Positions 10,396 to 63,700 are shown, numbered from the stretch's first letter. The stretch: 64,000 nt of DNA from Candidatus Omnitrophota bacterium (GCA_028712255.1 JAQTQJ010000002.1:22846-86845); one strand, 5' to 3'. Made by a program: numbers and translations. The notes: generated by a model not told the origin, from the sequence alone.

Positions 10396-10460
10396 GTCAT
10401 TCTGAGGGAGCGAAGCGACCGAAGAATCCAGATCCTTCGCCCTTCGGGCTCAGGATGACG
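10396..10460. repeat. Second full copy of the nested-palindrome repeat
   Basis: gtcattctgagggagcgaagcgaccgaagaatccagatccttcgcccttcgggctcaggatgac. Confidence 0.5.
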
Positions 10461-10496
10461 GAAAATGGTATTTTACAACAGTGCCAAGGTAGATAA

Positions 10497-11393
10497 ATGC
10501 AATTAAATAAAATTGGTGAATTTGGTTTAATTGAAAGGTTTCAGAGGATGATTAAAACTAATTCTTCTGTAATCCAGGGTAGCGGTGATGATTGCGCGGT
10601 TTTAAAGCTGGATAAGTTTAATTACCAGTTGTTTACTACCGATATGATAATTGAGGGGATAGATTTTAAAAAAAATGAAAATCTCAAGCTTGTAGGCAGA
10701 AAGTCCCTGGCTATCTCAATCAGCGATATTGCCGCCTGCGGTGGTATTCCTATGCATGCGGTAGTTGCCCTTGGCCTGCCGCAAAATATGCAGGTTAAAC
10801 AGGTTGACCTATTGTCTAGGGGTATATTTGATTTGGCGAAAAAATTTAATATTAATATTGTCGGAGGGGATATCAGCGTCTCGGATAAATTGATTATTAA
10901 TGTGAGTATGTTGGGCAGTGTTGAAAAAGATAAACTTTGCTTGCGCCTTGGCGCAAAAATAGGCGATATTATTATGGTTACCGGTGAGTTTGGCGGTTCG
11001 ATAAAAGGGAAGCATCTAAAATTCATTCCTCGCCTGAAGGAGGCGCGTTTTTTAGTGAATAATTTTAAAATTAATTCAATGATTGATGTTTCTGACGGGT
11101 TAATCCAGGATTTAGGGCATATTTTAGAACAGAGTTTGGTGGGAGCGGTTTTATATGAGAGCCTTATTCCGCAAAGCAAGGAGGCCAAAGGGCTAGAGGA
11201 TGCGCTTTATTCAGGTGAGGAGTTTGAATTGGTTTTTACGGCGTCAAGAGATCAGGCAAAAAAAATTATTCAAAATTCTAAATATTATTTTAAAGTTATC
11301 GGTGAAATTATGCCGGTATCATTTGGTTTAAAAATGATTAATCTTAAGGATAAATACTCTAAGATCAGGCTGCAGGGGTTTAAACATTTTTAA
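10497..11393 (+). CDS. thiL: Thiamine-monophosphate kinase
   Basis: GEFGLIERF…GDDCAVL N-terminus typical of ThiL, with PurM-like fold. Confidence 0.85.
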   Translation: MQLNKIGEFGLIERFQRMIKTNSSVIQGSGDDCAVLKLDKFNYQLFTTDMIIEGIDFKKNENLKLVGRKSLAISISDIAACGGIPMHAVVALGLPQNMQVKQVDLLSRGIFDLAKKFNINIVGGDISVSDKLIINVSMLGSVEKDKLCLRLGAKIGDIIMVTGEFGGSIKGKHLKFIPRLKEARFLVNNFKINSMIDVSDGLIQDLGHILEQSLVGAVLYESLIPQSKEAKGLEDALYSGEEFELVFTASRDQAKKIIQNSKYYFKVIGEIMPVSFGLKMINLKDKYSKIRLQGFKHF

Positions 11394-17298: not shown

Positions 17299-18582
17299 GT
17301 GAAAAAAATAAAAATTGTAGTAGTTGGAGCAGGGCCGTCAGGGATGATGGCGGCAATCCATGCAGCATCTTTAGGCCGGGAGGTCATCCTTCTTGAAAGG
17401 AAGGCTACCTTAGGCAATAAACTTCTCTTAAGCGGCAAAGGCCGCTGCAATCTCACTAATACCGAAGAGCTGCAATATTTTCTGAAACGTTTCTCTAACG
17501 GAGATTTTTTAAGAGATGCATTTAAGAAATTCTTTTCCCCAGAATTAATCTCCTTTTTTGAGGAACGCGGTTTAAAGTTAAAAGTTGAGCGTCAAATGCG
17601 CGTATTCCCTCAGAGTGACCGATCATCTAGTGTCTTAGACATATTAAAAAAAGAATTAATTAAACAAAAAGTAGAAATCATTTGTAAAAGTAAAGTAGTT
17701 GATTTGCTTGTTGCTAATGGCGCAGCCAGAGGAGTGCGCTTAGAGGATCAAAAAGATATTGCGGCTGACCGGATAATTTTAGCCGGGGGAGGGGCAAGTT
17801 ACAGTTTTACCGGTTCCGACGCATCACTAATAAATATCGCCAAGAGATTCGGGCATACGATTGTTCCTCTAAAAGCAGGTTTAGTGCCGCTTGATGTGAA
17901 ACAAAGTTATCTTAAAAAAATAGAAGGCCTCACTTTGCGTAATATCAGGTTTTCCGCCAAAGTCCTTGGCGGATCCGCCACGATTTGTGGCGGAAAATTT
18001 TCCGATGGTAAAACACAGATTAACTCTGAAATAGGAGAACTGGTTTTTACGTCGACCGGAATATCCGGGCCGCTTGTAATTTCTTTAAGCGGCAAGGTAA
18101 GCGATTTATTGGGGCCAGGCAAAAAAGTTTATGTGGATATAGATCTAAAACCGGCATTATCGATTGAGCAGTTGGATGGGCGCTTGCTTAGAGAGTTTAA
18201 ATCCAACTCCAAAAAAATTATTCAGAATATGCTCAAAGAATTATTGCCTTTACGTTTAATTAAAGTTTTTACAAATATTACAGGAATCAACCCGCTTAAA
18301 AAATGCAGCCAGATTACGCAAGGCGAAAGGCAAAAGATCATTTCCTTGCTTAAAGGTTTTCGCATGGAGATTTCTGGTCCCCGTCCCATTGAAGAAGGTA
18401 TGGTTACCCGGGGAGGAGTGAGTCTAAAGGAAATAAACCCGCGCACTATGGAATCACGCCTGATTAAGGGATTATATTTCTGCGGAGAGATGATTGATAT
18501 AGACGCGGATACCGGCGGATTTAACCTTCAGGCAGCTTTTTCGACGGGGTATTTGGCGGGGGAGAGCGTGGCGATAAGTTAA
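17299..18582 (+). CDS. NAD(P)/FAD-dependent oxidoreductase, HI0933/BaiN-like (aminoacetone-oxidase family)
   Basis: GAGPSG dinucleotide fold followed by GKGRCNLTN, characteristic of the HI0933 family. Confidence 0.8.
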   Translation: MKKIKIVVVGAGPSGMMAAIHAASLGREVILLERKATLGNKLLLSGKGRCNLTNTEELQYFLKRFSNGDFLRDAFKKFFSPELISFFEERGLKLKVERQMRVFPQSDRSSSVLDILKKELIKQKVEIICKSKVVDLLVANGAARGVRLEDQKDIAADRIILAGGGASYSFTGSDASLINIAKRFGHTIVPLKAGLVPLDVKQSYLKKIEGLTLRNIRFSAKVLGGSATICGGKFSDGKTQINSEIGELVFTSTGISGPLVISLSGKVSDLLGPGKKVYVDIDLKPALSIEQLDGRLLREFKSNSKKIIQNMLKELLPLRLIKVFTNITGINPLKKCSQITQGERQKIISLLKGFRMEISGPRPIEEGMVTRGGVSLKEINPRTMESRLIKGLYFCGEMIDIDADTGGFNLQAAFSTGYLAGESVAIS

Positions 18583-23181: not shown

Positions 23182-23586
23182 GGGGGTGAAAGGGTTCGAC
23201 TTAAGATATGTCGGATAAAAGCAGCATGCCGCGGACGCATGGTTAGCCGCGTTAATAATCCGTGCACAATTCAAACGCAAACACGACAGTGTCACGTTTA
23301 GGAACATTTGTCCAGCCGTCTTTTGCGGCTAGACCGATGTTTCTTCCAGCCTACTGCCCTAATTAAGGCAGTAGCCTCTAACCGTCCAGCCTACGGGATG
23401 GATTAGGGCCTTGGTAGGATAGTCTCGGCGGTTAGCCTTCCAAACTGGGATGAAATCGAAAAGGCTGCGCTTTGCAAATCCTGCCTTATAGAAGTTGCAA
23501 AGCTAAGACAAATTATAAGGCTAAGCATGTAGCGGCTTCTATTCGATTACTTAGGGACGGCGGTTCAATTCCGCCCACCTCCACCA
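23182..23586 (+). ncRNA. ssrA: Transfer-messenger RNA (tmRNA)
   Basis: 5' end GGGGGUGAAAGGGUUCGAC and 3' end GGACGGCGGUUCAAUUCCGCCCACCUCCACCA form a tRNA-Ala-like acceptor/T-arm with encoded CCA. The gene lies immediately downstream of smpB. The tag ORF could not be resolved. Confidence 0.85.
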
Positions 23587-29331: not shown

Positions 29332-30034
29332 CGGACGCGGTAATGACAAAATCAGAAAAGTTAACATAACCAGAAATTATATTAAATTTCCGGAAGGCTC
29401 TTGTTTAATAGAATTAGGGAATACCAAAGTAATCTGTACTGCATCCGTTGATGAATTTGTCCCGCCGTTTTTAAGGGGCTCAGGCACAGGCTGGGTTACC
29501 GCCGAGTACGGAATGCTCCCTCGTTCATGCGGAACGCGTATCCCGCGCGGAAAAGATTCCGGCCGCACTTATGAAATTCAGCGTTTAATCGGCAGATCCC
29601 TTCGGGCAATTACCGAGATGAAGTATTTAGGTGAGCGTACCATTTGGATTGATTGTGATGTTATTCAAGGTGACGGCGGTACGCGTACCGCTTCAATTAC
29701 CGGAAGTTTCATTGCTTTAGTTGATGCTTTACAAAAACTTAAAAAAGATGGCAAGATTAGTAAGGTTCCCGTACAGGATTATGTTGCCGCAACCAGCGTT
29801 GGGATGCTAAATGGAGATTTGTTGTTAGATTTGTGTTATGAGGAGGATTCTAAAGCCGAAGTAGATATGAATGTGATTATGACTGGTTCGGGTGAATTTA
29901 TCGAAGTGCAGGGTAATGCGGAACGCAAGCCTTTTTCCAAAGAAAAAATGGATACAATGCTTGATTTCGCCAAAAAAGGAATTGAAGAACTTTTTAGTGT
30001 TCAGAGAAAACTTGTCGGAGACATATTGCTATAA
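29318..30034 (+). CDS. rph: Ribonuclease PH
   Basis: MRIDGRG…[13 protein letters not shown]…, then AEYGMLPRS and [14 protein letters not shown] motifs. ATG at 29318 lies behind an aacggagggg RBS. Confidence 0.9.
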
Positions 30035-30642
30035 TGAAGTTAGTAGTTGCTACACGAAACAAAAAGAAGTTGCTTGAGATAAAAGAAATTTTAAAGGGGA
30101 TGGATTTAACTTTATTGTCCCTTGACACCTATAAAAATTCTCCGAGAGTAGTTGAGAATGGCAAGACTTTCAAGGAGAATGCGGTAAAGAAAGCGGTGAA
30201 ATTAGCTCGATTTACAGGCGAGCTTTGCTTGGGCGAAGATTCCGGCTTGTGCGTCGACGCTCTGGATGGAGCTCCGGGGATTTATTCAGCGCGTTTCTCA
30301 GGGAAAGATAAAAGCGATATTAAGAATAATTTTAAATTACTTAAGTTACTTAAAGATATACCTTGGCAAAAAAGAAAAGCCCATTATGTTTGCGCTGTAG
30401 CGCTAGCCGATAAGCAGGAATTGATAGAAGTAGTTGAGGGAAGATGCAATGGTTTAATTGCCTTTGAACCTAAAGGCGCTGCCGGATTTGGATATGATCC
30501 GGTATTTTATATTCCAAAATATAAGAAGACATTCGCTCAAACGGGAGAAAAAATCAAGCATAAAATGAGCCACCGTTACCATGCTTTAAAAAAAGCCAAG
30601 CGGATAATCCAGAAATATATTGTTAAGCAAGTAGAGAGTTGA
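30034..30642 (+). CDS. rdgB: Non-canonical purine NTP pyrophosphatase (RdgB/HAM1)
   Basis: VATRN.KKL.E, GEDSGL.VDALDGAPG.YSAR and GFGYDP motifs. Confidence 0.9.
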   Translation: MKLVVATRNKKKLLEIKEILKGMDLTLLSLDTYKNSPRVVENGKTFKENAVKKAVKLARFTGELCLGEDSGLCVDALDGAPGIYSARFSGKDKSDIKNNFKLLKLLKDIPWQKRKAHYVCAVALADKQELIEVVEGRCNGLIAFEPKGAAGFGYDPVFYIPKYKKTFAQTGEKIKHKMSHRYHALKKAKRIIQKYIVKQVES

Positions 30643-30664
30643 TATAATAAAAGTTTACGCAATA

Positions 30665-30742
30665 CGGGGCGTGGCTCAGTTTGGCTAGAGCGTCCGCCAT
30701 TAGAACGTTGGCGGACGAGCGCCAAAGATTCAGTGGCGCTCG
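30665..30742 (+). other. 5' half of a tRNA-Pro-like gene (acceptor CGGGGCG plus D arm), followed by a 50-nt double-hairpin element, then disrupted
   Basis: cggggcg tg gctcagtttggctagagcg has the same D arm as the intact tRNA-Pro. Then tccgccattagaacgttggcgga + cgagcgccaaagattcagtggcgctcg. The matching 3' acceptor strand cgccccg is ~590 nt downstream at 31325-31331. Confidence 0.5.
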
Positions 30743-30748
30743 CCTGTT

Positions 30749-31000
30749 TTGATGATTATGTTTGTTTACGTATTAAGAAGTAAAAAAGATAAAAGTCTCT
30801 ATATAGGCTCAACAAAAAATGTAGATCAAAGGTTTAATAGCCATAATAGAGGAGAAAGTTTATCTACAAAATCGAAAAGACCGTGGGTATTAACTAGGGT
30901 TGAGGAATATAATAGTGATTCTTTAGCGTTAAAACGGGAAAAGTTTTTAAAAAGCGGTGAAGGTAGAAGGGTTCTTAAGAATCTAACTTTGTTTAAGTAA
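30749..31000 (+). CDS. Small GIY-YIG nuclease (YhbQ/UPF0213-like, nuclease domain only)
   Basis: GIY-YIG core FVYVLRS…SLYIGSTKNVDQRFNSHNRG, then SLAL.RE..K. Located inside the interrupted tRNA gene, 3 nt upstream of the intact tRNA-Pro. Confidence 0.75.
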   Translation: MMIMFVYVLRSKKDKSLYIGSTKNVDQRFNSHNRGESLSTKSKRPWVLTRVEEYNSDSLALKREKFLKSGEGRRVLKNLTLFK

Positions 31001-31003
31001 TAA

Positions 31004-31078
31004 CGGGGAGTGGCTCAGTTTGGCTAGAGCGCTTGCTTTGGGAGCAAGAGGTCGTGAGTTCAAGTCTCACCTCCCCGA
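31004..31078 (+). tRNA. tRNA-Pro (anticodon UGG)
   Basis: Cloverleaf with C1-G72 acceptor CGGGGAG/CUCCCCG, D arm GCUC-AGUUUGGCUA-GAGC, anticodon stem-loop CUUGC-UUUGGGA-GCAAG, T arm GUGAG-UUCAAGU-CUCAC, discriminator A. No encoded CCA. Confidence 0.85.
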
Positions 31079-31080
31079 CA

Positions 31081-31334
31081 TGTTAACGTATTGTATTTGG
31101 CTAGAGCGTCCGCCATTAGAACGTTGGCGGACGAGCGCCAAAGATTCAGTGGCGCTCGCTTGCTTTGGGAGCAAGAGGTCGTGAGTTCAAGTCTCACCTC
31201 CCCGACATGTTAACGTATTGTATTTGGCTAGAGCGTCCGCCATTAGAACGTTGGCGGACGAGCGCCAAAGATTCAGTGGCGCTCGCTTGCTTTGGGAGCA
31301 AGAGGTCACAGATTCAAGTCCTGTCGCCCCGATA
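31081..31334 (+). repeat. Two tandem ~127-bp units derived from the 3' three-quarters of tRNA-Pro, each carrying the identical 50-nt double-hairpin insert between tRNA positions 26 and 27
   Basis: Each unit is tgttaacgtattgta + tttggctagagcg + [50-nt insert] + cttgctttgggagcaag aggtc + T arm + acceptor 3' strand. Unit 1 ends ctcacctccccgaca, identical to the intact tRNA-Pro. Unit 2 ends acagattcaagtcctgtcgccccgata, complementary to the orphan 5' half at 30665. Confidence 0.6.
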
Positions 31335-31399
31335 AAATGTTTCGGGTAAGACCTCGCCAATGTTTAGTGGTGGGTCGCCCCGACTTTGAAAAATTAAAT

Positions 31400-31680
31400 G
31401 CGCCTGTAGCTCAAATGGATAGAGCACCTGCCTTCCAAAGGAGCCTCTATGGGGAAATAAAACTCATAGAGTGCATGTGGCTGTATGCAAGGAAATCCTT
31501 ATTTTTTAAGGATCACTTGCAGGCAACCCCCGCTATAAGCGGGGAGAGTCCTCAGAGACTATACGCCACACACCTGTAAAGGTGAAGACATAGTCCAGAC
31601 CGCAACAAGTGTTTCTGGCCGGAGTAATCCGGTGCGGTAAGCTAAGCCGGTTGTTGGCCGTTCGATTCGGCCCAGGCGCA
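31400..31680 (+). tRNA. tRNA gene interrupted in the anticodon loop by a ~207-nt group I intron; inferred tRNA-Arg (anticodon UCU) after splicing
   Basis: 5' acceptor GCGCCUG (31400-31406) and 3' strand CAGGCGC-A (31673-31680) are perfectly complementary across 281 nt. D arm GCUC-AAAUGGAUA-GAGC and T arm GGCCG-UUCGAUU-CGGCC are canonical. Exon 1 ends at …CCUGC-CUU (31434) and exon 2 begins after a G at CUAAGCCGG (31642). The anticodon assignment depends on the exact splice sites. Confidence 0.6.
31435..31641 (+). other. Putative group I intron (no ORF)
   Basis: Contains a P7-like pairing agACTAtacg … acaTAGTCcagac and several stem-loops (cctctatgggg/ctcatagag; cccgc-tataa-gcggg). Terminal G sits before exon 2 and a U before the 5' splice site. 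Size is comparable to the smallest known tRNA group I introns. Confidence 0.5.
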
Positions 31681-31817
31681 TTTAAATAGTATAAAGAATC
31701 GAACGGAAGGGGGTGTGGGGGAAAAGTGATGTCCCCCACGCTTTCGGGGTGACAGCGAACGAAGTGAGCGCCATAGGGGCAGAGCCCCTATGGGGAGCGA
31801 TCCGCCATAGGCGGAGC

Positions 31818-31846
31818 GCGACAAGTTCGATTCGGCCCAGGCGCAT
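31818..31846 (+). repeat. Direct repeat of the 3' end of the intron-containing tRNA (gttcgattcggcccaggcgcat), about 140 bp downstream
   Basis: A 22-nt exact copy of 31660-31681 preceded by a degenerate T-arm. The spacer is rich in small palindromes (cataggggcagagcccctatgg; tccgccataggcgga). Confidence 0.45.
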
Positions 31847-33096: not shown

Positions 33097-33160
33097 TCGT
33101 GGGTATAGCTTAGTTGTTTGCTCAGCGGTAGAGTCAGAGCGGTAGACTGTGGGCTATTTC
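33097..33160 (+). pseudogene. Degenerate duplicate of the 5' half of tRNA-His (acceptor through anticodon region)
   Basis: gtgggtatagcttag… matches the tRNA-His 5' end gtgggtatagctcag. Followed by gctcagcggtagag (D-arm-like) and gactgtgggc (anticodon-loop-like; intact gene has gactgtggctc). Confidence 0.45.
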
Positions 33161-33201
33161 ATTATTTTGATAAACTTATTGTTCTTTGATATAATTAAAT
33201 C

Positions 33202-33663
33202 ATGCCAAATCAAAAATGTAAGATTTGCGGTAAAGAATTCTATACAAAGCCTTTTCATGTGAAGAAAGGTTGGGGTAAATATTGTTCTATAAAATGTCGT
33301 TCTAAATCTCAATTTAATGGAAAATGGGTCAAATGCGTTAACTGCGGAAGGAAAATTTATAGGACCCCGCGTGATTATAGAAAATCAAAAAGCAAAAGAT
33401 TTTTTTGTTCAGTAGGTTGCCATTGTTCATGGGAAAATAAAAACGTGCGTTGTGGCGTTAATGCGCCAAATTGGATTGCTGGAGAAAATGCTTATAGGGA
33501 TATAATGAGAAGGTCCGGTATAGTAAAAAAATGTAATAAATGCGGAATAGATGATAAAAGAATTTTGGCAGTCCATCATAAAGACGGGAATAGAAAAAAT
33601 AATGTAATAGAAAATTTAGAATGGCTCTGTCGCAATTGTCATTTTATTGTTCATTGGTATTAG
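33202..33663 (+). CDS. HNH endonuclease
   Basis: N-terminal CxxC zinc knuckles (CKICGK, CVNCGR) and HNH core AVHHKDGNRKNNVIENLEWLCRNCH. Lies between the tRNA-His 5' fragment and the intact tRNA-His. Confidence 0.75.
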   Translation: MPNQKCKICGKEFYTKPFHVKKGWGKYCSIKCRSKSQFNGKWVKCVNCGRKIYRTPRDYRKSKSKRFFCSVGCHCSWENKNVRCGVNAPNWIAGENAYRDIMRRSGIVKKCNKCGIDDKRILAVHHKDGNRKNNVIENLEWLCRNCHFIVHWY

Positions 33664-33668
33664 TTTTT

Positions 33669-33746
33669 GGTGGGTATAGCTCAGCTGGATAGAGCACCTG
33701 ACTGTGGCTCAGGTTGTCGCGAGTTCGAATCTCGTTACCCACCCCA
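33669..33746 (+). tRNA. tRNA-His (anticodon GUG) with encoded G-1 and 3' CCA
   Basis: G-1 pairs with discriminator C73. Acceptor GUGGGUA/UACCCAC, anticodon stem-loop CCUGA-CUGUGGC-UCAGG, T arm GCGAG-UUCGAAU-CUCGU, then CCA. Confidence 0.9.
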
Positions 33747-34370
33747 TTTTTTATTTTGAGCATATAAAGCCTCCCAACTGGCCGTAGAATCAACGAGTTG
33801 CGTCGGTTCTAATCTGTTGTGGAGGCTTTGTACGTCAGGTGCCACACATTCGAACATGGCAAGGCACTTTTCCTGCTCAAATTGCAGTTTCTTGCCGTGT
33901 AAGACGAGTTTTGTGCCCAGACACGAGAGAACATACCGCTTGTCCTCTAAAGTGCCCGTGTCGAACCGTTTCTTGGCCGTTTGCGCGAACATAAACGCCT
34001 TATCCGCCCGATCCAGCCACGTTTCAGCCCTTGCCTGAGTATCGCCGATTAATTCCTCGTATTTCTGCTTTTCCTTGAGGATATCCTCTTTTTTCTTGGC
34101 GTATTCTTCCGCGCCGATCTCTTCGTTCAATCGCATATTAAAAAGCGCGTCTAATTTTTTAACGCAGGCGTCCAGATTATGCCGGTGCGCCTTGGTGATC
34201 TCATCGCGGTCGACTATTTCTTTTGATTGATCAGCTTTAAGTTGTTTTATCGCCCAATCCCGGAATTGCGGCGGTATGGTTATTTTGCCTAAAATGTCAC
34301 GGATTTGATTCTCAAGATCCTCTAAGCGTATAGGCGGCTCGGAGCAATCCCGTTTGATACTGCGCGCCCT
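33735..34370 (-). pseudogene. C-terminal fragment of a serine-recombinase-like protein (coiled-coil/zinc-ribbon region); N-terminal catalytic domain absent
   Basis: Open frame runs with no start codon from a TAA near 34370 to the first Met at 34136: …IRLEDLENQIRDILGKI…DEITKAHRHNLDACVKKLDALFNMRLNEE…. The 3' end overlaps the tRNA-His 3' end by ~12 nt, an integrase-next-to-tRNA arrangement. The family assignment is tentative. Confidence 0.45.
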
Positions 34371-63561: not shown

Positions 63562-63700
63562 AGCTAAGATTTTATAGTCTCATAAAAATGGGTTCAGGAG
63601 TATCTTCCTGAAGGTTTAGATGGTCGGGCCGCCATCTGCGATTATCGCAGGTGTCGGTTTTTTATTTTTTAGCGTTTAAGTTAAAAGAAAGGAGTCTTTT

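Follow-up and report, generated by a model that had tools for sequence, protein, structure and literature searches.

A GIY-YIG nuclease gene and an imported tRNA-Pro, probably a homing-type cassette, in a split chromosomal tRNA-Pro gene of an Omnitrophota bacterium

The DNA that we analysed is a 64,000-nucleotide stretch (hereafter the window) from Candidatus Omnitrophota bacterium, in which a chromosomal tRNA-Pro(UGG) gene is split around a small nuclease gene and a second, complete tRNA-Pro. We consider it probable that a free-standing cassette of the homing-endonuclease type entered and split the resident gene. Such a cassette would consist of an 80-aa GIY-YIG gene and a complete, functional tRNA-Pro of the other allele, and would also bring a tRNA-derived downstream tail with a 50-nt double-hairpin element, here called E. 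The cassette was installed by recombination within the tRNA sequence, with the left junction after native position 35; the right junction is in the variable-loop/T-stem region, and the native 5' part and the T arm with the 3' end stay as orphans. The imported tRNA is predicted to be the one on which the cell depends. Exact look-up of the window's own proteins matched no record, and their context was drawn from homologues.

Organization of the split tRNA-Pro locus

All features of the locus lie on the + strand. A promoter-like site at 30620..30648 (TTGTTA, a 17-nt spacer and TATAAT, with TG ahead of the -10; 10/12 matches) now stands ahead of the orphan, the ORF and the intact tRNA, and no further + strand promoter-like or terminator-like site was found as far as the intact tRNA. 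The same box (TTGATATAAT) occurs at equal distance before the plain tRNA-Pro in empty-site relatives. The site is probably the native tRNA-Pro promoter, and it probably drives the orphan, the nuclease gene and the tRNA as a single transcript.

The orphan 5' piece of the native tRNA-Pro (30665..30692), assigned by allele comparison, comprises the acceptor strand CGGGGCG, the D arm and G26. E copy 1 (30693..30742) follows it directly, between tRNA positions 26 and 27, and is defined as a 50-nt double hairpin by its three exact copies, covariation and fold. Then comes the native anticodon stem/loop remnant CCTGTTTTG (positions 27-35; 30743..30751), which departs from the native CCTGCTTTG at one position and from the cassette allele at two. 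Since these 9 nt of tRNA stand after the first E, the ORF junction lies in the anticodon loop. The minimal, free-standing GIY-YIG nuclease gene (30758..31000; PF01541) encodes 80 aa, and the intact tRNA-Pro(UGG) of the cassette allele (31004..31078) starts 3 nt past its stop codon; the acceptor, anticodon and T stems of this tRNA are CGGGGAG/CTCCCCG, CTTGC/GCAAG and GTGAG/CTCAC. Between the orphan pieces, no integrase or recombinase was found, and the GIY-YIG gene is the only ORF with a domain match.

Downstream of the intact tRNA, two 127-bp units form a tandem array (period 127, 2.2 copies, 100% matches). Unit 1 (31079..31205), which Rfam scores as a partial tRNA with 28 bits, begins with a 17-nt linker (CATGTTAACGTATTGTA) and a 13-nt D-arm 3' piece (31096-31108); E copy 2 (31109-31158) comes next, and the 3' half that closes the unit (31159-31205) is cassette-type. 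Unit 2 (31206..31332) repeats the linker, the D-arm piece and E (copy 3, 31236-31285), and allele comparison reveals a chimeric 3' half in which 31286-31307 is cassette-type, whereas the T arm and acceptor 3' strand (31308-31332) are native and carry a G53-to-A change. This unit ends in ACAGATTCAAGTCCTGTCGCCCCGA, and its acceptor strand is complementary to the upstream CGGGGCG. A 42-nt spacer with a degenerate H2-like hairpin (CTCGCCAATGTTTAGTGGTGGG) and a second native 3' end occupy 31333..31383; the second native copy is TCGCCCCGA (31375-31383), with the native flank CTTTGAAAA next to it, and the flank 3' of the locus is of the same kind as in the empty sites (CGCCCCGACTTTGAAAATTAAT). The native tRNA-Pro is split accordingly, with positions 1-35 upstream of the ORF and the T arm and 3' end ~550 nt downstream. 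A single copy of the 127-bp unit is also present in L001/L003, L015 and L128.

A sequence-only reading of this DNA had already described a tRNA 5' half with the 50-nt element directly after it, an intact tRNA-Pro(UGG) 3 nt past the ORF stop, and pairing of the last unit's end with the orphan 5' half. All three were borne out, the intact tRNA by an ARAGORN run and an Rfam score of 67.7 bits. Its two tandem 127-bp units also stand, with a linker of 17 nt rather than 15, and its 83-codon nuclease-only ORF does carry the GIY-YIG domain, the annotated protein being 80 aa long from the ATG at 30758. The invasion point that it placed at the D-arm/anticodon-stem junction is right for E at 26/27 but not for the ORF, whose junction falls after position 35 in the anticodon loop.

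The window is from a metagenome-assembled genome and the unit number (two) is given as assembled, so that a chimera or a mis-resolved repeat of ordinary tRNA genes or co-existing strains has to be considered; the units are 100% identical, their period of 127 is a common assembler k-mer and the last unit is a hybrid of two alleles. We hold such an artefact to be extremely improbable. Independent assemblies made at other k values (L001/L003 with k141, L015, L100, L128) reproduce the parts, their order and the 127-nt spacing, the arrangement of the wider family is also found in a complete isolate genome (L052), and the covarying differences of E between genomes point to real evolution. The period itself was rejected as a k-mer artefact on the same 127-nt spacing in the independent MEGAHIT k141 assembly (L001/L003). 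In the single-unit genome, the intact tRNA and the orphan share only 24 nt; no assembly-graph loop would be expected, and therefore the junction between E and the cassette-type 3' half was presumably present in the reads.

Native and imported alleles

Two relatives, L203 and L209, contain a plain tRNA-Pro(UGG) and then tRNA-Arg(UCU) at the same site. The order there is promoter, tRNA-Pro, tRNA-Arg and DUF748 gene, their Ham1 is 89-90% identical to the window's, and the synteny QueE-QueF-fumarase-RNase PH-Ham1 is common to all three. Neither the ORF nor E nor tRNA fragments were found at the tRNA-Pro site of L203 and L209. Because the empty sites have this structure, the resident gene is taken to be an ordinary tRNA-Pro without E. 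The ORF is thus polymorphic in presence and absence, standing behind the same Ham1 gene in the window, L001/L003, L015 and L100 and lacking in L203 and L209.

Comparison of alleles separated the imported parts from the resident ones. First, the intact tRNA-Pro is identical at 75/75 positions to that of L004, 74/75 to L002 and 73/75 to L003, which are more distant genomes whose tRNA-Pro adjoins the same ORF, and at only 62-63/75 positions to the native allele of the closest relatives. Second, the orphan pieces show 0-1 mismatch to the native allele, the 5' piece having 0 mismatches to the native allele (L204/L205) and 1 to the cassette allele. Third, unit 2 changes from one allele to the other: its anticodon arm agrees with the cassette allele throughout and departs from the native one at 2 positions, whereas its T arm and acceptor depart from the native allele at 1 position and from the cassette allele at 10. 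The switch from cassette to native sequence is at 31307/31308, which places the right recombination junction between AGGTC and ACAGA. Finally, the donor-type tRNA adjoins the ORF between recombinant junctions, as in co-transfer of flanking markers. Orphan remnants in L002, L003, L009, L010 and L012 also end at anticodon -1 to +3.

Since the intact tRNA is a non-native allele and the split pieces are native, we conclude that a foreign cassette of nuclease and replacement tRNA came in by recombination. A selfish endonuclease with a replacement tRNA in a resident tRNA-Pro had been proposed from the sequence, and with the empty sites and the allele match this core reading is kept. The target duplications invoked with it as the source of the units are dispensable; unequal crossing-over between repeated 3' halves fits, and the 127-bp units probably arose in this way. 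The ORF of the window and that of L003 are 79% identical in amino acids and the host Ham1 81%, distances that taken alone may be compatible with vertical descent and loss in some lineages.

From the anatomy and the presence/absence polymorphism, we infer that the cassette spreads by cleavage-driven homing. The nuclease probably cuts ORF-less tRNA alleles, and repair would then copy the cassette in. It counts against the homing reading that the intact cassette tRNA holds the whole presumed target region. The difference in the anticodon stem (CTTGC against the native CCTGC) is a candidate basis for self-immunity and fits this clade. As a general rule, anticodon-stem immunity was rejected, for the orphans of many other loci are identical to their intact tRNA.

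A parallel case is found at the neighbouring tRNA-His (33099..33743, + strand), where the native gene survives as a degenerate orphan 5' part ending just past the anticodon (33099-33155); after it come an HNH ORF (33202-33663) and, at 33670-33743, an intact tRNA-His whose allele is foreign. Like the window, L205 has this site occupied, whereas L203, L204 and L209 have it empty, and the native anticodon stem is in the orphan, the foreign one in the intact gene; the recurrence of the same logic with an HNH enzyme, noticed beforehand in the sequence, is therefore upheld. In L012, the orthologous tRNA-His site is taken up by a GIY-YIG cassette instead, whose orphan contains E.

The GIY-YIG protein and its relatives

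The predicted protein matches PF01541 with 65.3 bits (cutoff 22.6; E = 6e-18) over residues 4-70. The ATG start at 30758 gives 80 aa and an alternative TTG start at 30749 gives 83 aa. Its nearest solved structures are SLX1 (6seh) and UPF0213 BH0048 (1zg2), and by sequence it belongs to the Slx1/UPF0213-type minimal GIY-YIG nucleases. Residues Y4, Y15 and E61 are invariant and R25 and H29 are at least 90% conserved among 29 homologues, in alignment with the SLX1 motifs. The ORF is under purifying selection, with dN/dS values of 0.04-0.19. The domain spans nearly the whole protein without an extra domain, and the homologues are 79-116 aa long. Characterised GIY-YIG homing enzymes carry a separate DNA-binding domain; a module of the kind present in I-TevI and the Seg proteins is lacking in the 80-aa protein.

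Relatives of the ORF were collected by a locus scan with a narrower alignment, the 29-sequence alignment being too diverse, and the resulting 77 loci are from Omnitrophota, Ignavibacteria, Bacteroidota, Patescibacteria and others. A same-strand tRNA lies within 160 nt of the ORF in 62/77 loci, after the ORF in 36 of these and before it in 26, and these tRNAs are of many different identities. Usually, an orphan 5' piece is upstream where the tRNA follows the ORF, and an orphan 3' piece downstream where it precedes. In the complete genome of Flavobacterium covae AL-02-36, three copies of ORF plus orphan are in tandem. The breakpoints in the tRNA vary by clade, and therefore the family has no single target position; a universal anticodon-loop breakpoint was rejected, since the range of anticodon -1 to +3 is true for the Omnitrophota Pro and His cassettes and fails in other clades. 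A protein scan of viral contigs found no relatives of the ORF, and in the literature searched we found no description of the small GIY-YIG family beside tRNA genes.

These loci also bear on the idea that the ORF and the hairpins are domesticated in tRNA operons, where they would serve RNA processing or repair, and that the orphans are incidental local duplications. Purifying selection on the ORF is strong, the ORF shares the tRNA strand in all cases and is tightly packed, with its stop often inside or a few nt before the tRNA, and the hairpin stands at the mRNA end that tRNA processing leaves undefined (5' if the tRNA follows, 3' if it precedes), all of which this idea would explain. We nevertheless judge it very unlikely. 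Very close relatives vary in presence and absence at one site, the imported tRNA allele is foreign, and the associated tRNAs have many identities; moreover, a single site can hold several ORFs, stacked or in tandem (L100, L052), and nucleases of other, unrelated families (HNH; PD-(D/E)XK inside an intron) are present in the same tRNA cluster.

Element E and related hairpins

The three copies of E are identical over 50 nt (30693-30742, 31109-31158 and 31236-31285), as the sequence-only reading had stated, and 0 copies were seen in 100 shuffles. E consists of two hairpins, H1 (TCCGCCA/TGGCGGA) and H2 (CGAGCGCCA/TGGCGCTCG), and its position at 26/27 was fixed by alignment to the empty site. With model R1, copy 1 scores 70.7 bits. 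The H1 stem TCCGCC/GGCGGA is invariant with a loop of 3 to 9 nt, and H2 covaries: 4/9 pairs are altered on both sides, and 96.9% of cells are paired compared with 88.7% in shuffles. Counts of 10 G·U and 9 A·C cells favour neither an RNA nor a DNA role of E. The further copies that had been suggested for a search do exist: orphan pieces that contain E derive from tRNA genes for Pro, His, Arg(CCG), Arg(UCG), Val and Ala, and no intact tRNA contained it. The hairpins break the orphans at the D loop, 26/27, the variable region and the T loop. More widely, a CCGCC-loop-GGCGG hairpin is beside the ORF in 48/77 loci, at 25x the density of the flanks and mostly on the orphan side of the ORF. A metagenome scan with the pattern 'D arm + H1' gave ~10/80 relevant loci, the rest being chance matches in GC-rich DNA, and in viral DNA the same pattern gave 4 matches, all by chance.

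E-bearing orphans also occur next to intact tRNAs with no ORF in the searched DNA (L087, L098, L114, L145, L162), which covered up to 1500 nt on each side and for two contigs only 1.2-1.5 kb. The ARAGORN tRNA call of L114 begins within the hairpin module. In L011, the intact tRNA is separated from the E-bearing orphan by an ORF; with this arrangement as a hint, the linker CATGTTAACGTATTGTA might be the remnant of a deleted second ORF. A cloverleaf-like fold of the orphan with E, closed by a 4-bp helix, was dismissed as a coincidence: the helix uses the native anticodon-stem remnant, and no matching complementarity was read in the relatives' sequences.

Two tandem 21-nt H1-type hairpins (17953..17994, + strand; R1 32-34 bits) are in frame (14 codons) in an FAD-dependent oxidoreductase gene of the window. 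An alignment with 11 homologues, which share 76-87% identity with the window protein there, shows the 14 encoded residues to be missing from all of them. Hairpins related to E can also insert elsewhere, and E is not strictly tRNA-specific. Read directly, no flanking duplication was seen at 26/27 or at 17953/17994. E shares with double-hairpin elements its adjacent conserved hairpins, several copies, insertion polymorphism and lack of flanking duplication. It behaves like a structured mobile hairpin module that is tied to the cassette family and settles in non-functional tRNA pieces. Its role could be that of a recognition or cutting site for the nuclease, a target disruptor in the orphans, or an mRNA-end stabiliser.

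E had been read beforehand as either a miniature element or a non-canonical intron. The former describes it better, although E reaches beyond tRNA, and the latter is unsupported. If E were an intron or another processed insert, the split tRNA-Pro could be functional through splicing or trans-joining; its exact position between 26 and 27, its structure and the pairing of the upstream acceptor strand with the 3' end of the last unit would suit this. E is, however, confined to truncated copies, and the intact copy and the relatives' native gene lack it. Both pieces of the gene hold E in the same orientation without complementary leaders, and in the window's native T stem the G53-C61 pair of the native allele is replaced by an A53·C61 mismatch. 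No Rfam intron or ribozyme matched the element at E-values up to 5. The related hairpin pair is kept in frame in the protein gene and is therefore presumably translated, not removed, and mitochondrial double-hairpin elements are reported as staying in transcripts (PMC2800124). Based on these observations, we rejected E as an intron, and a functional split tRNA-Pro appears hardly credible.

A further explanation takes the hairpin modules as the primary mobile agent and the GIY-YIG protein as their nuclease, acting on hairpin or cloverleaf DNA structures. The parallel would be with REP/RAYT or mitochondrial double-hairpin elements, and the tRNA duplications and the position of the ORF would be by-products of repair. 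Much of the hairpin evidence agrees with it, namely the invariant H1 stem with its variable loop, the covarying H2 stem, the breaks of orphans at structural junctions, the hairpin-pair orphans without an ORF and the in-frame pair in a protein gene; the protein, too, lacks a DNA-binding domain and has a structure-specific endonuclease, SLX1, as its nearest neighbour. REP elements have a conserved GTAG head and are partnered by an HUH (RAYT) transposase; the hairpins of E start with TCCGCC, not GTAG. What makes the hairpins rather unlikely as the primary agent is that the foreign tRNA allele and the recombinant junctions indicate whole-cassette homologous exchange, not hairpin transposition, and that the HNH cassette at tRNA-His has the same architecture without such hairpins. 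In addition, there are only about 6 hairpin sites in the 64-kb window, and neither a target-site duplication nor defined element ends were seen.

The GIY-YIG protein and the TCCGCC-stem hairpin may also form a two-part mobile system in which a nucleic-acid structure supplies the target specificity missing from the domain-only nuclease, a proposal that we regard as unlikely. The target structure could be the system's own hairpin or cloverleaf-type DNA extruded at tRNA genes.

Implications

Stand-alone GIY-YIG proteins of ~80 aa are widespread and their role is undescribed in the literature searched; the present locus provides them with a testable biological context, in which they appear to be the cargo or the driver of small cassettes nested in partly duplicated tRNA genes of several phyla. 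Essential chromosomal tRNA genes of bacteria would be replaceable horizontally by an 'endonuclease plus spare tRNA' cassette, a strategy of endonuclease plus spare gene that was previously documented for phage tRNA clusters and mitochondrial protein genes. The cassettes are also a source of the tRNA fragments and tandem tRNA-like repeats that mislead tRNA annotation, and they expose a conserved double-hairpin module that even a protein gene can accommodate in frame. Where a nuclease reduced to its catalytic domain gets its apparent site preference is a mechanistic question that the locus raises. If the two-part system were true, it would be a new class of bacterial mobile element with a REP/RAYT-like logic on a GIY-YIG nuclease, spreading among many tRNA identities and phyla by breaking genes and supplying the replacement, and it would give a function to the large family of small 'GIY-YIG nuclease family proteins'.

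Comparison with known systems

The motif recognised by phage T4 SegB is conserved and lies in the T arm of tRNA genes (PMC2330249; also cited in PMC8421152); the enzyme drives the inheritance of itself and of flanking tRNA genes into ORF-less relatives (PMC2330249). Like segB, the window ORF is a GIY-YIG gene among tRNA genes and outside introns; it adjoins a co-imported tRNA, and ORF-less relatives exist. SegB, however, has a DNA-binding region, whereas the window protein is an 80-aa catalytic domain alone, and SegB is found in a phage between intact genes, whereas the window cassette is chromosomal and inside a tRNA gene. The cassette further differs in leaving orphan halves and conserved hairpins, and its cleavage activity is proposed by analogy.

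In fungal mitochondria, mobile endonuclease ORFs create gene hybrids (Allomyces atp6; Glomus atp6, atp9, cox2 and nad3). A GIY-YIG or LAGLIDADG ORF brings a foreign gene part that keeps the gene functional, and the native remnant downstream is like that of a close relative while the inserted part is divergent (PMC3630166). The window likewise shows a nuclease ORF, a foreign functional copy and a native remnant. Here, the host gene is a tRNA gene on a bacterial chromosome and not a protein gene of mitochondria; the orphan can be the 5' as well as the 3' part in the window family, no frame fusion is involved and the nuclease is far smaller.

In Rickettsia, palindromic elements are in frame within genes. 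Mitochondrial hairpin elements (Allomyces double-hairpin elements, yeast GC clusters, sponge elements) are short, GC-rich modules with one or two hairpins and conserved stems. They are found between genes, within RNA genes and occasionally within protein genes, leave no duplication at their flanks, vary in presence between close relatives and remain in transcripts (PMC2800124, PMC3787672). In their behaviour, the in-frame pair at 17953-17994 and E resemble both kinds. Unlike the mitochondrial elements, the window hairpins are bacterial and concentrated in orphan tRNA pieces by one nuclease family across phyla, and their H1 stem is conserved far past one genome.

When an integrase island enters a tRNA gene, an intact gene is regenerated at one end and the far end of the insert keeps an incomplete copy (PMC9897764), which resembles the intact gene and partial copy seen here. 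The insert in the window has no integrase or recombinase and measures ~0.3-0.6 kb compared with many kb, the cassette family leaves 5' halves as often as 3' parts, and the cassette junctions are recombinant between alleles rather than a fixed att core.

The anticodon loop after position 35, where the left junction of the cassette lies, is one site used by tRNA group I introns (PMC13011429), some of which travel with homing genes. In contrast to these, no ribozyme is found around the GIY-YIG ORF, with no group I ribozyme around such ORFs in 20 loci searched with Rfam, and what restores function is a second copy of the gene rather than splicing. The same cluster does contain a group I intron, in the tRNA-Arg(UCU) 400 nt downstream of the tRNA-Pro locus, and this tRNA-Arg intron is found with or without a PD-(D/E)XK ORF.

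Organization of the split tRNA-Pro locus

The sequence-only reading had described a tRNA-Pro gene with a GIY-YIG ORF and tandem repeats, and when we read positions 30400-31600, this layout proved to be real, with its parts in order. The gene upstream of the site is Ham1/RdgB (30034-30642), which has many close homologues. A tRNA 5' half (CGGGGCG, D arm and G26; 30665-30692) is followed by E, a 50-nt element formed by two hairpins, H1 and H2 (30693-30742), and by nine further tRNA-like bases, CCTGTTTTG (30743-30751), all three being read from the sequence. The GIY-YIG ORF (PF01541) ends at 31000, and an intact tRNA-Pro(UGG) is located at 31004-31078 (ARAGORN; Rfam 67.7 bits). Downstream of the intact gene, Tandem Repeats Finder detected two 127-nt units (period 127, 2.2 copies, 100% identity), each of which opens with a 17-nt linker and continues with the 13-nt piece TTTGGCTAGAGCG, E and a tRNA 3' half. 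A second native 3' end (TCCGCCCCGA-type end, TCGCCCCGA), belonging to the resident gene type of close relatives, is positioned at 31375-31383 and adjoins the native flank CTTTGAAAA. Exact copies of E occur three times in the whole window, all at the tRNA-Pro locus, against a chance expectation of none.

The site is likewise found after Ham1 in another genome, L001/L003, whose assembly used k = 141. There, the 5' half is followed by an E with a partial deletion, the remnant CTTGCTTT and an ORF 79% identical to that of the window, and then by tRNA-Pro, linker, D-arm piece, E and 3' half, with the same 127-nt spacing but in a single unit. The unit type of the window is also present in L015, L100 and L128, loci from other genomes. 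Since the architecture is seen in independent assemblies, it is real and not an assembly artefact, and the number of units in the window, two, is to be taken as assembled only. Extra units would come from unequal crossing-over between the repeated 3' halves.

In L100, the tRNA-Pro site behind Ham1 (10430-11230) contains two different GIY-YIG ORFs, one after the other, with acceptor-derived hairpins (GGGGCGTG..CCCGTTGC) and an E-bearing orphan, a leftover tRNA gene piece, between them. This arrangement looks like nested invasions.

Empty sites and two tRNA-Pro alleles

The surrounding DNA was compared for four Ham1 homologues (89-90% identical), and these relatives have the order QueE, QueF, fumarase, RNase PH and Ham1 in common. 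In L203 and L209, Ham1 is followed by the TTGATATAAT promoter box as in the window, a plain tRNA-Pro(UGG), a 13-14 nt spacer, a plain tRNA-Arg(UCU) and the DUF748 gene, and the site as read contains no ORF, no E and no tRNA fragments. These two loci are empty sites.

The native tRNA-Pro reads CGGGGCG..GAGCG CCTGC TTTGGGA GCAGG AGGTC ACAGG TTCAAGT CCTGT CGCCCCG A. When the pieces in the window were compared with this allele and with the cassette allele, the tRNA-Pro accompanying the ORF, the upstream orphan (positions 1-26) showed no mismatch to the native and one to the cassette allele, and the nine bases after E (positions 27-35) showed one and two, respectively. In the last unit, the anticodon arm has two mismatches to the native and none to the cassette allele, the T arm and acceptor (last 25 nt) have one and ten, and the change from cassette type to native type falls at 31307/31308. 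The intact tRNA-Pro of the window is identical to the native allele at only 62-63 of 75 positions, and to the tRNA-Pro adjoining the homologous ORF at 75/75 in L004, 74/75 in L002 and 73/75 in L003. Ham1 was identified in only one genome among L002-L004, that of L001/L003, where host genes have diverged further (Ham1 about 81%; P0160). As read from the alignment, every difference between the two alleles lies within stems, and both therefore look functional. Based on the empty sites, the allele mismatches and the switch at 31307/31308, comparison of the alleles directly shows that a foreign segment, the ORF with its own tRNA-Pro, entered the native gene and divided it, the insertion of this cassette having occurred by recombination within tRNA sequence.

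The GIY-YIG gene and its family

The ORF matches the GIY-YIG domain with 65 bits (PF01541, cutoff 22.6), and the publicly annotated protein (P0001, encoded in a metagenome-assembled genome of Candidatus Omnitrophica) is 80 aa long, with the ATG at 30758 as its start. The protein is the catalytic domain alone; among solved structures, SLX1 and the UPF0213 protein BH0048 are closest to it, and the catalytic Tyr, Tyr, Arg, His and Glu residues are kept in the family. The dN/dS values among close homologues were 0.04-0.19, indicating that the gene is preserved in protein-coding form.

A family profile scan using one genome per species yielded 77 loci from Omnitrophota, Ignavibacteria, Bacteroidota, Patescibacteria and other groups. 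Of the 77 loci, 62 have a same-strand tRNA gene no more than 160 nt from the ORF, and 7 more end beside the ORF, so that a tRNA neighbour is not judgeable there. The tRNA is located 3' of the ORF in 36 loci, often overlapping its stop codon, and 5' in 26, and the associated tRNAs include Pro, His, Asn, Asp, Ser, Met, Phe, Val, Gly, Leu and Cys. Loci in which the tRNA comes after the ORF usually have an orphan copy of the tRNA 5' part upstream of the ORF; where the tRNA comes first, an orphan copy of its 3' part is found downstream. In the complete isolate genome of Flavobacterium covae (CP067379; L052, 1150-2500), three tandem ORF-plus-orphan copies with a period of about 347 nt stand after three tandem tRNA-Met genes, each copy consisting of a terminator-like hairpin, the GIY-YIG ORF, a TCCGCCTCGGCGGA hairpin and an orphan T arm with 3' end. 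These comparisons show that the nuclease gene is conserved and that the pattern holds across the family. No group I ribozyme was detected around the ORF in 20 loci tested (0/20), indicating that the ORFs are free-standing, and no relatives of the protein were found in viral contigs.

A structured hairpin module

We aligned 22 copies of E from orphans of Pro, His, Arg(CCG), Arg(UCG), Val and Ala genes. H1 has the same stem throughout the alignment (TCCGCC/GGCGGA), and H2 is changed on both sides at 4 of 9 pairs, with one pair showing GC, CG, AU and UA. Paired cells amounted to 96.9%; shuffles gave 88.7%, and sliding the partners gave 31-57%. Full copies were found by the covariance model in Omnitrophota-type loci only. 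A simpler CCGCC-loop-GGCGG hairpin is more widespread: 48 of the 77 loci have it in the 200 nt before or the 300 nt after the ORF (in most of the 48 on the orphan side), and it is 25 times denser there than in the flanks. The insertion points in orphans are the D loop, 26/27, the variable region and the T loop, and no hairpin was seen in intact tRNAs among the loci examined. Some E-bearing orphans also adjoin intact tRNAs without any ORF (L087, L098, L114, L145 and L162). In addition, two tandem 21-nt H1-type hairpins (TCCGCCA..TGGCGGA; 17953-17994) lie inside the FAD-dependent oxidoreductase gene (17299-18582) as 14 extra in-frame codons (SAKVLGGSATICGG), which are absent from all 11 aligned homologues (76-87% identical). 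Based on the stem covariation, the insertion positions, the ORF-less orphans and the in-frame oxidoreductase pair, E is a structured module whose insertion leaves no flanking duplication; it differs from one relative to another and is tolerated within a reading frame. In these respects it is like the mitochondrial double-hairpin and repetitive hairpin elements, for which behaviour of this kind has been described (PMC2800124, PMC3787672). E could serve a structure-specific Slx1-like enzyme as its recognition or cutting site, disrupt the target within orphans, or protect the mRNA end left undefined by tRNA processing.

We also considered E as an intron; nothing supports this, the hairpins being seen only outside intact tRNAs.

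In L114 (330-410), a second 'tRNA-Val' called by ARAGORN starts inside the hairpin module of the orphan and is a false tRNA prediction produced by such structures.

Neighbouring tRNA-His and tRNA-Arg genes

A recurrence of the arrangement at tRNA-His with an HNH ORF had also been claimed from the sequence, and it is borne out by empty and occupied sites and by a native orphan stem that differs from the intact one. In L203, L204 and L209, tRNA-His stands directly after the DUF748 gene and the site is empty. In the window (33099-33743) and in L205 (4740-5400), the HNH ORF lies between a degenerate orphan 5' part, ending just past the anticodon, and the intact tRNA-His, and the anticodon stem is the native TTAGA in the orphan and CCTGA in the intact gene. 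The orthologous site of L012 (1395-1830) contains a GIY-YIG ORF and an E-bearing orphan, and its downstream flank is 88% identical.

The window tRNA-Arg(UCU) (31400-31680), missed by ARAGORN, contains a group I intron that scores 68.5 bits with Rfam; we place it at 31435-31641, where it separates anticodon positions 34 and 35. There is no intron in L203 and L209, another variant in L205 and L208, and in L204 the intron of the window together with a PD-(D/E)XK ORF. From the occupied tRNA-Pro, tRNA-His and tRNA-Arg sites, three unrelated nuclease families therefore occur in one tRNA cluster, which favours a selfish-element reading over a housekeeping reading.

Several smaller features were observed here. 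By eye, both HNH cassettes have a promoter-like TTGATA/TTGACA ... TATAAT before the ORF. A 133-aa ORF without Pfam match (33735-34136, minus strand) overlaps the tRNA-His 3' end on the opposite strand; since its flank is also present in L012 and is absent from L203, L204 and L209, the region downstream of tRNA-His may also be variable. At 31682-31846, the tRNA-Arg 3' end (GTTCGATTCGGCCCAGGCGCAT) is repeated 165 nt downstream, where it adjoins the native flank before the DUF748 gene, and the 143-nt spacer between the two ends is hairpin-rich (including CCGCCATAGGCGG) and has no ORF.

Proposed mechanism and known systems

We infer nuclease-driven homing of the cassette into ORF-less tRNA alleles, in which the nuclease would cut such alleles and repair would then copy the cassette in. 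The models for this cut-and-copy route are T4 SegB, which recognises a motif in the T arm of tRNA genes and drives the inheritance of tRNA genes nearby (PMC2330249), and mitochondrial endonuclease ORFs, which arrive with a foreign gene end, the native one staying behind (PMC3630166). Transcription probably runs from the native promoter through the orphan, the ORF and the tRNA, and such read-through would tie the only functional tRNA-Pro(UGG) at the locus to the cassette for its expression.

The underlying logic is already known from phage T4 and fungal mitochondria, and partial gene duplication is known from integrase islands in tRNA genes (PMC9897764). In the literature searched, whose coverage was incomplete, we found no description of bacterial chromosomal tRNA genes split and replaced by minimal GIY-YIG cassettes, of an association of this protein family with tRNA genes, or of the conserved hairpin module. 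The only tRNA link in a GIY-YIG phylogenomics paper is a fusion to a tRNA methyltransferase (PMC1564403).

Other features in the window

Compared with the family model, the tmRNA gene (23182-23586; Rfam 156 bits) contains some 50 nt of inserted sequence within or beside the tag-coding region, and the tag predicted by ARAGORN is unusual, VQPTGWIRALVG. An nhaA-I RNA motif was matched at 63590-63637 with 44.8 bits, compared with a gathering score of 37.
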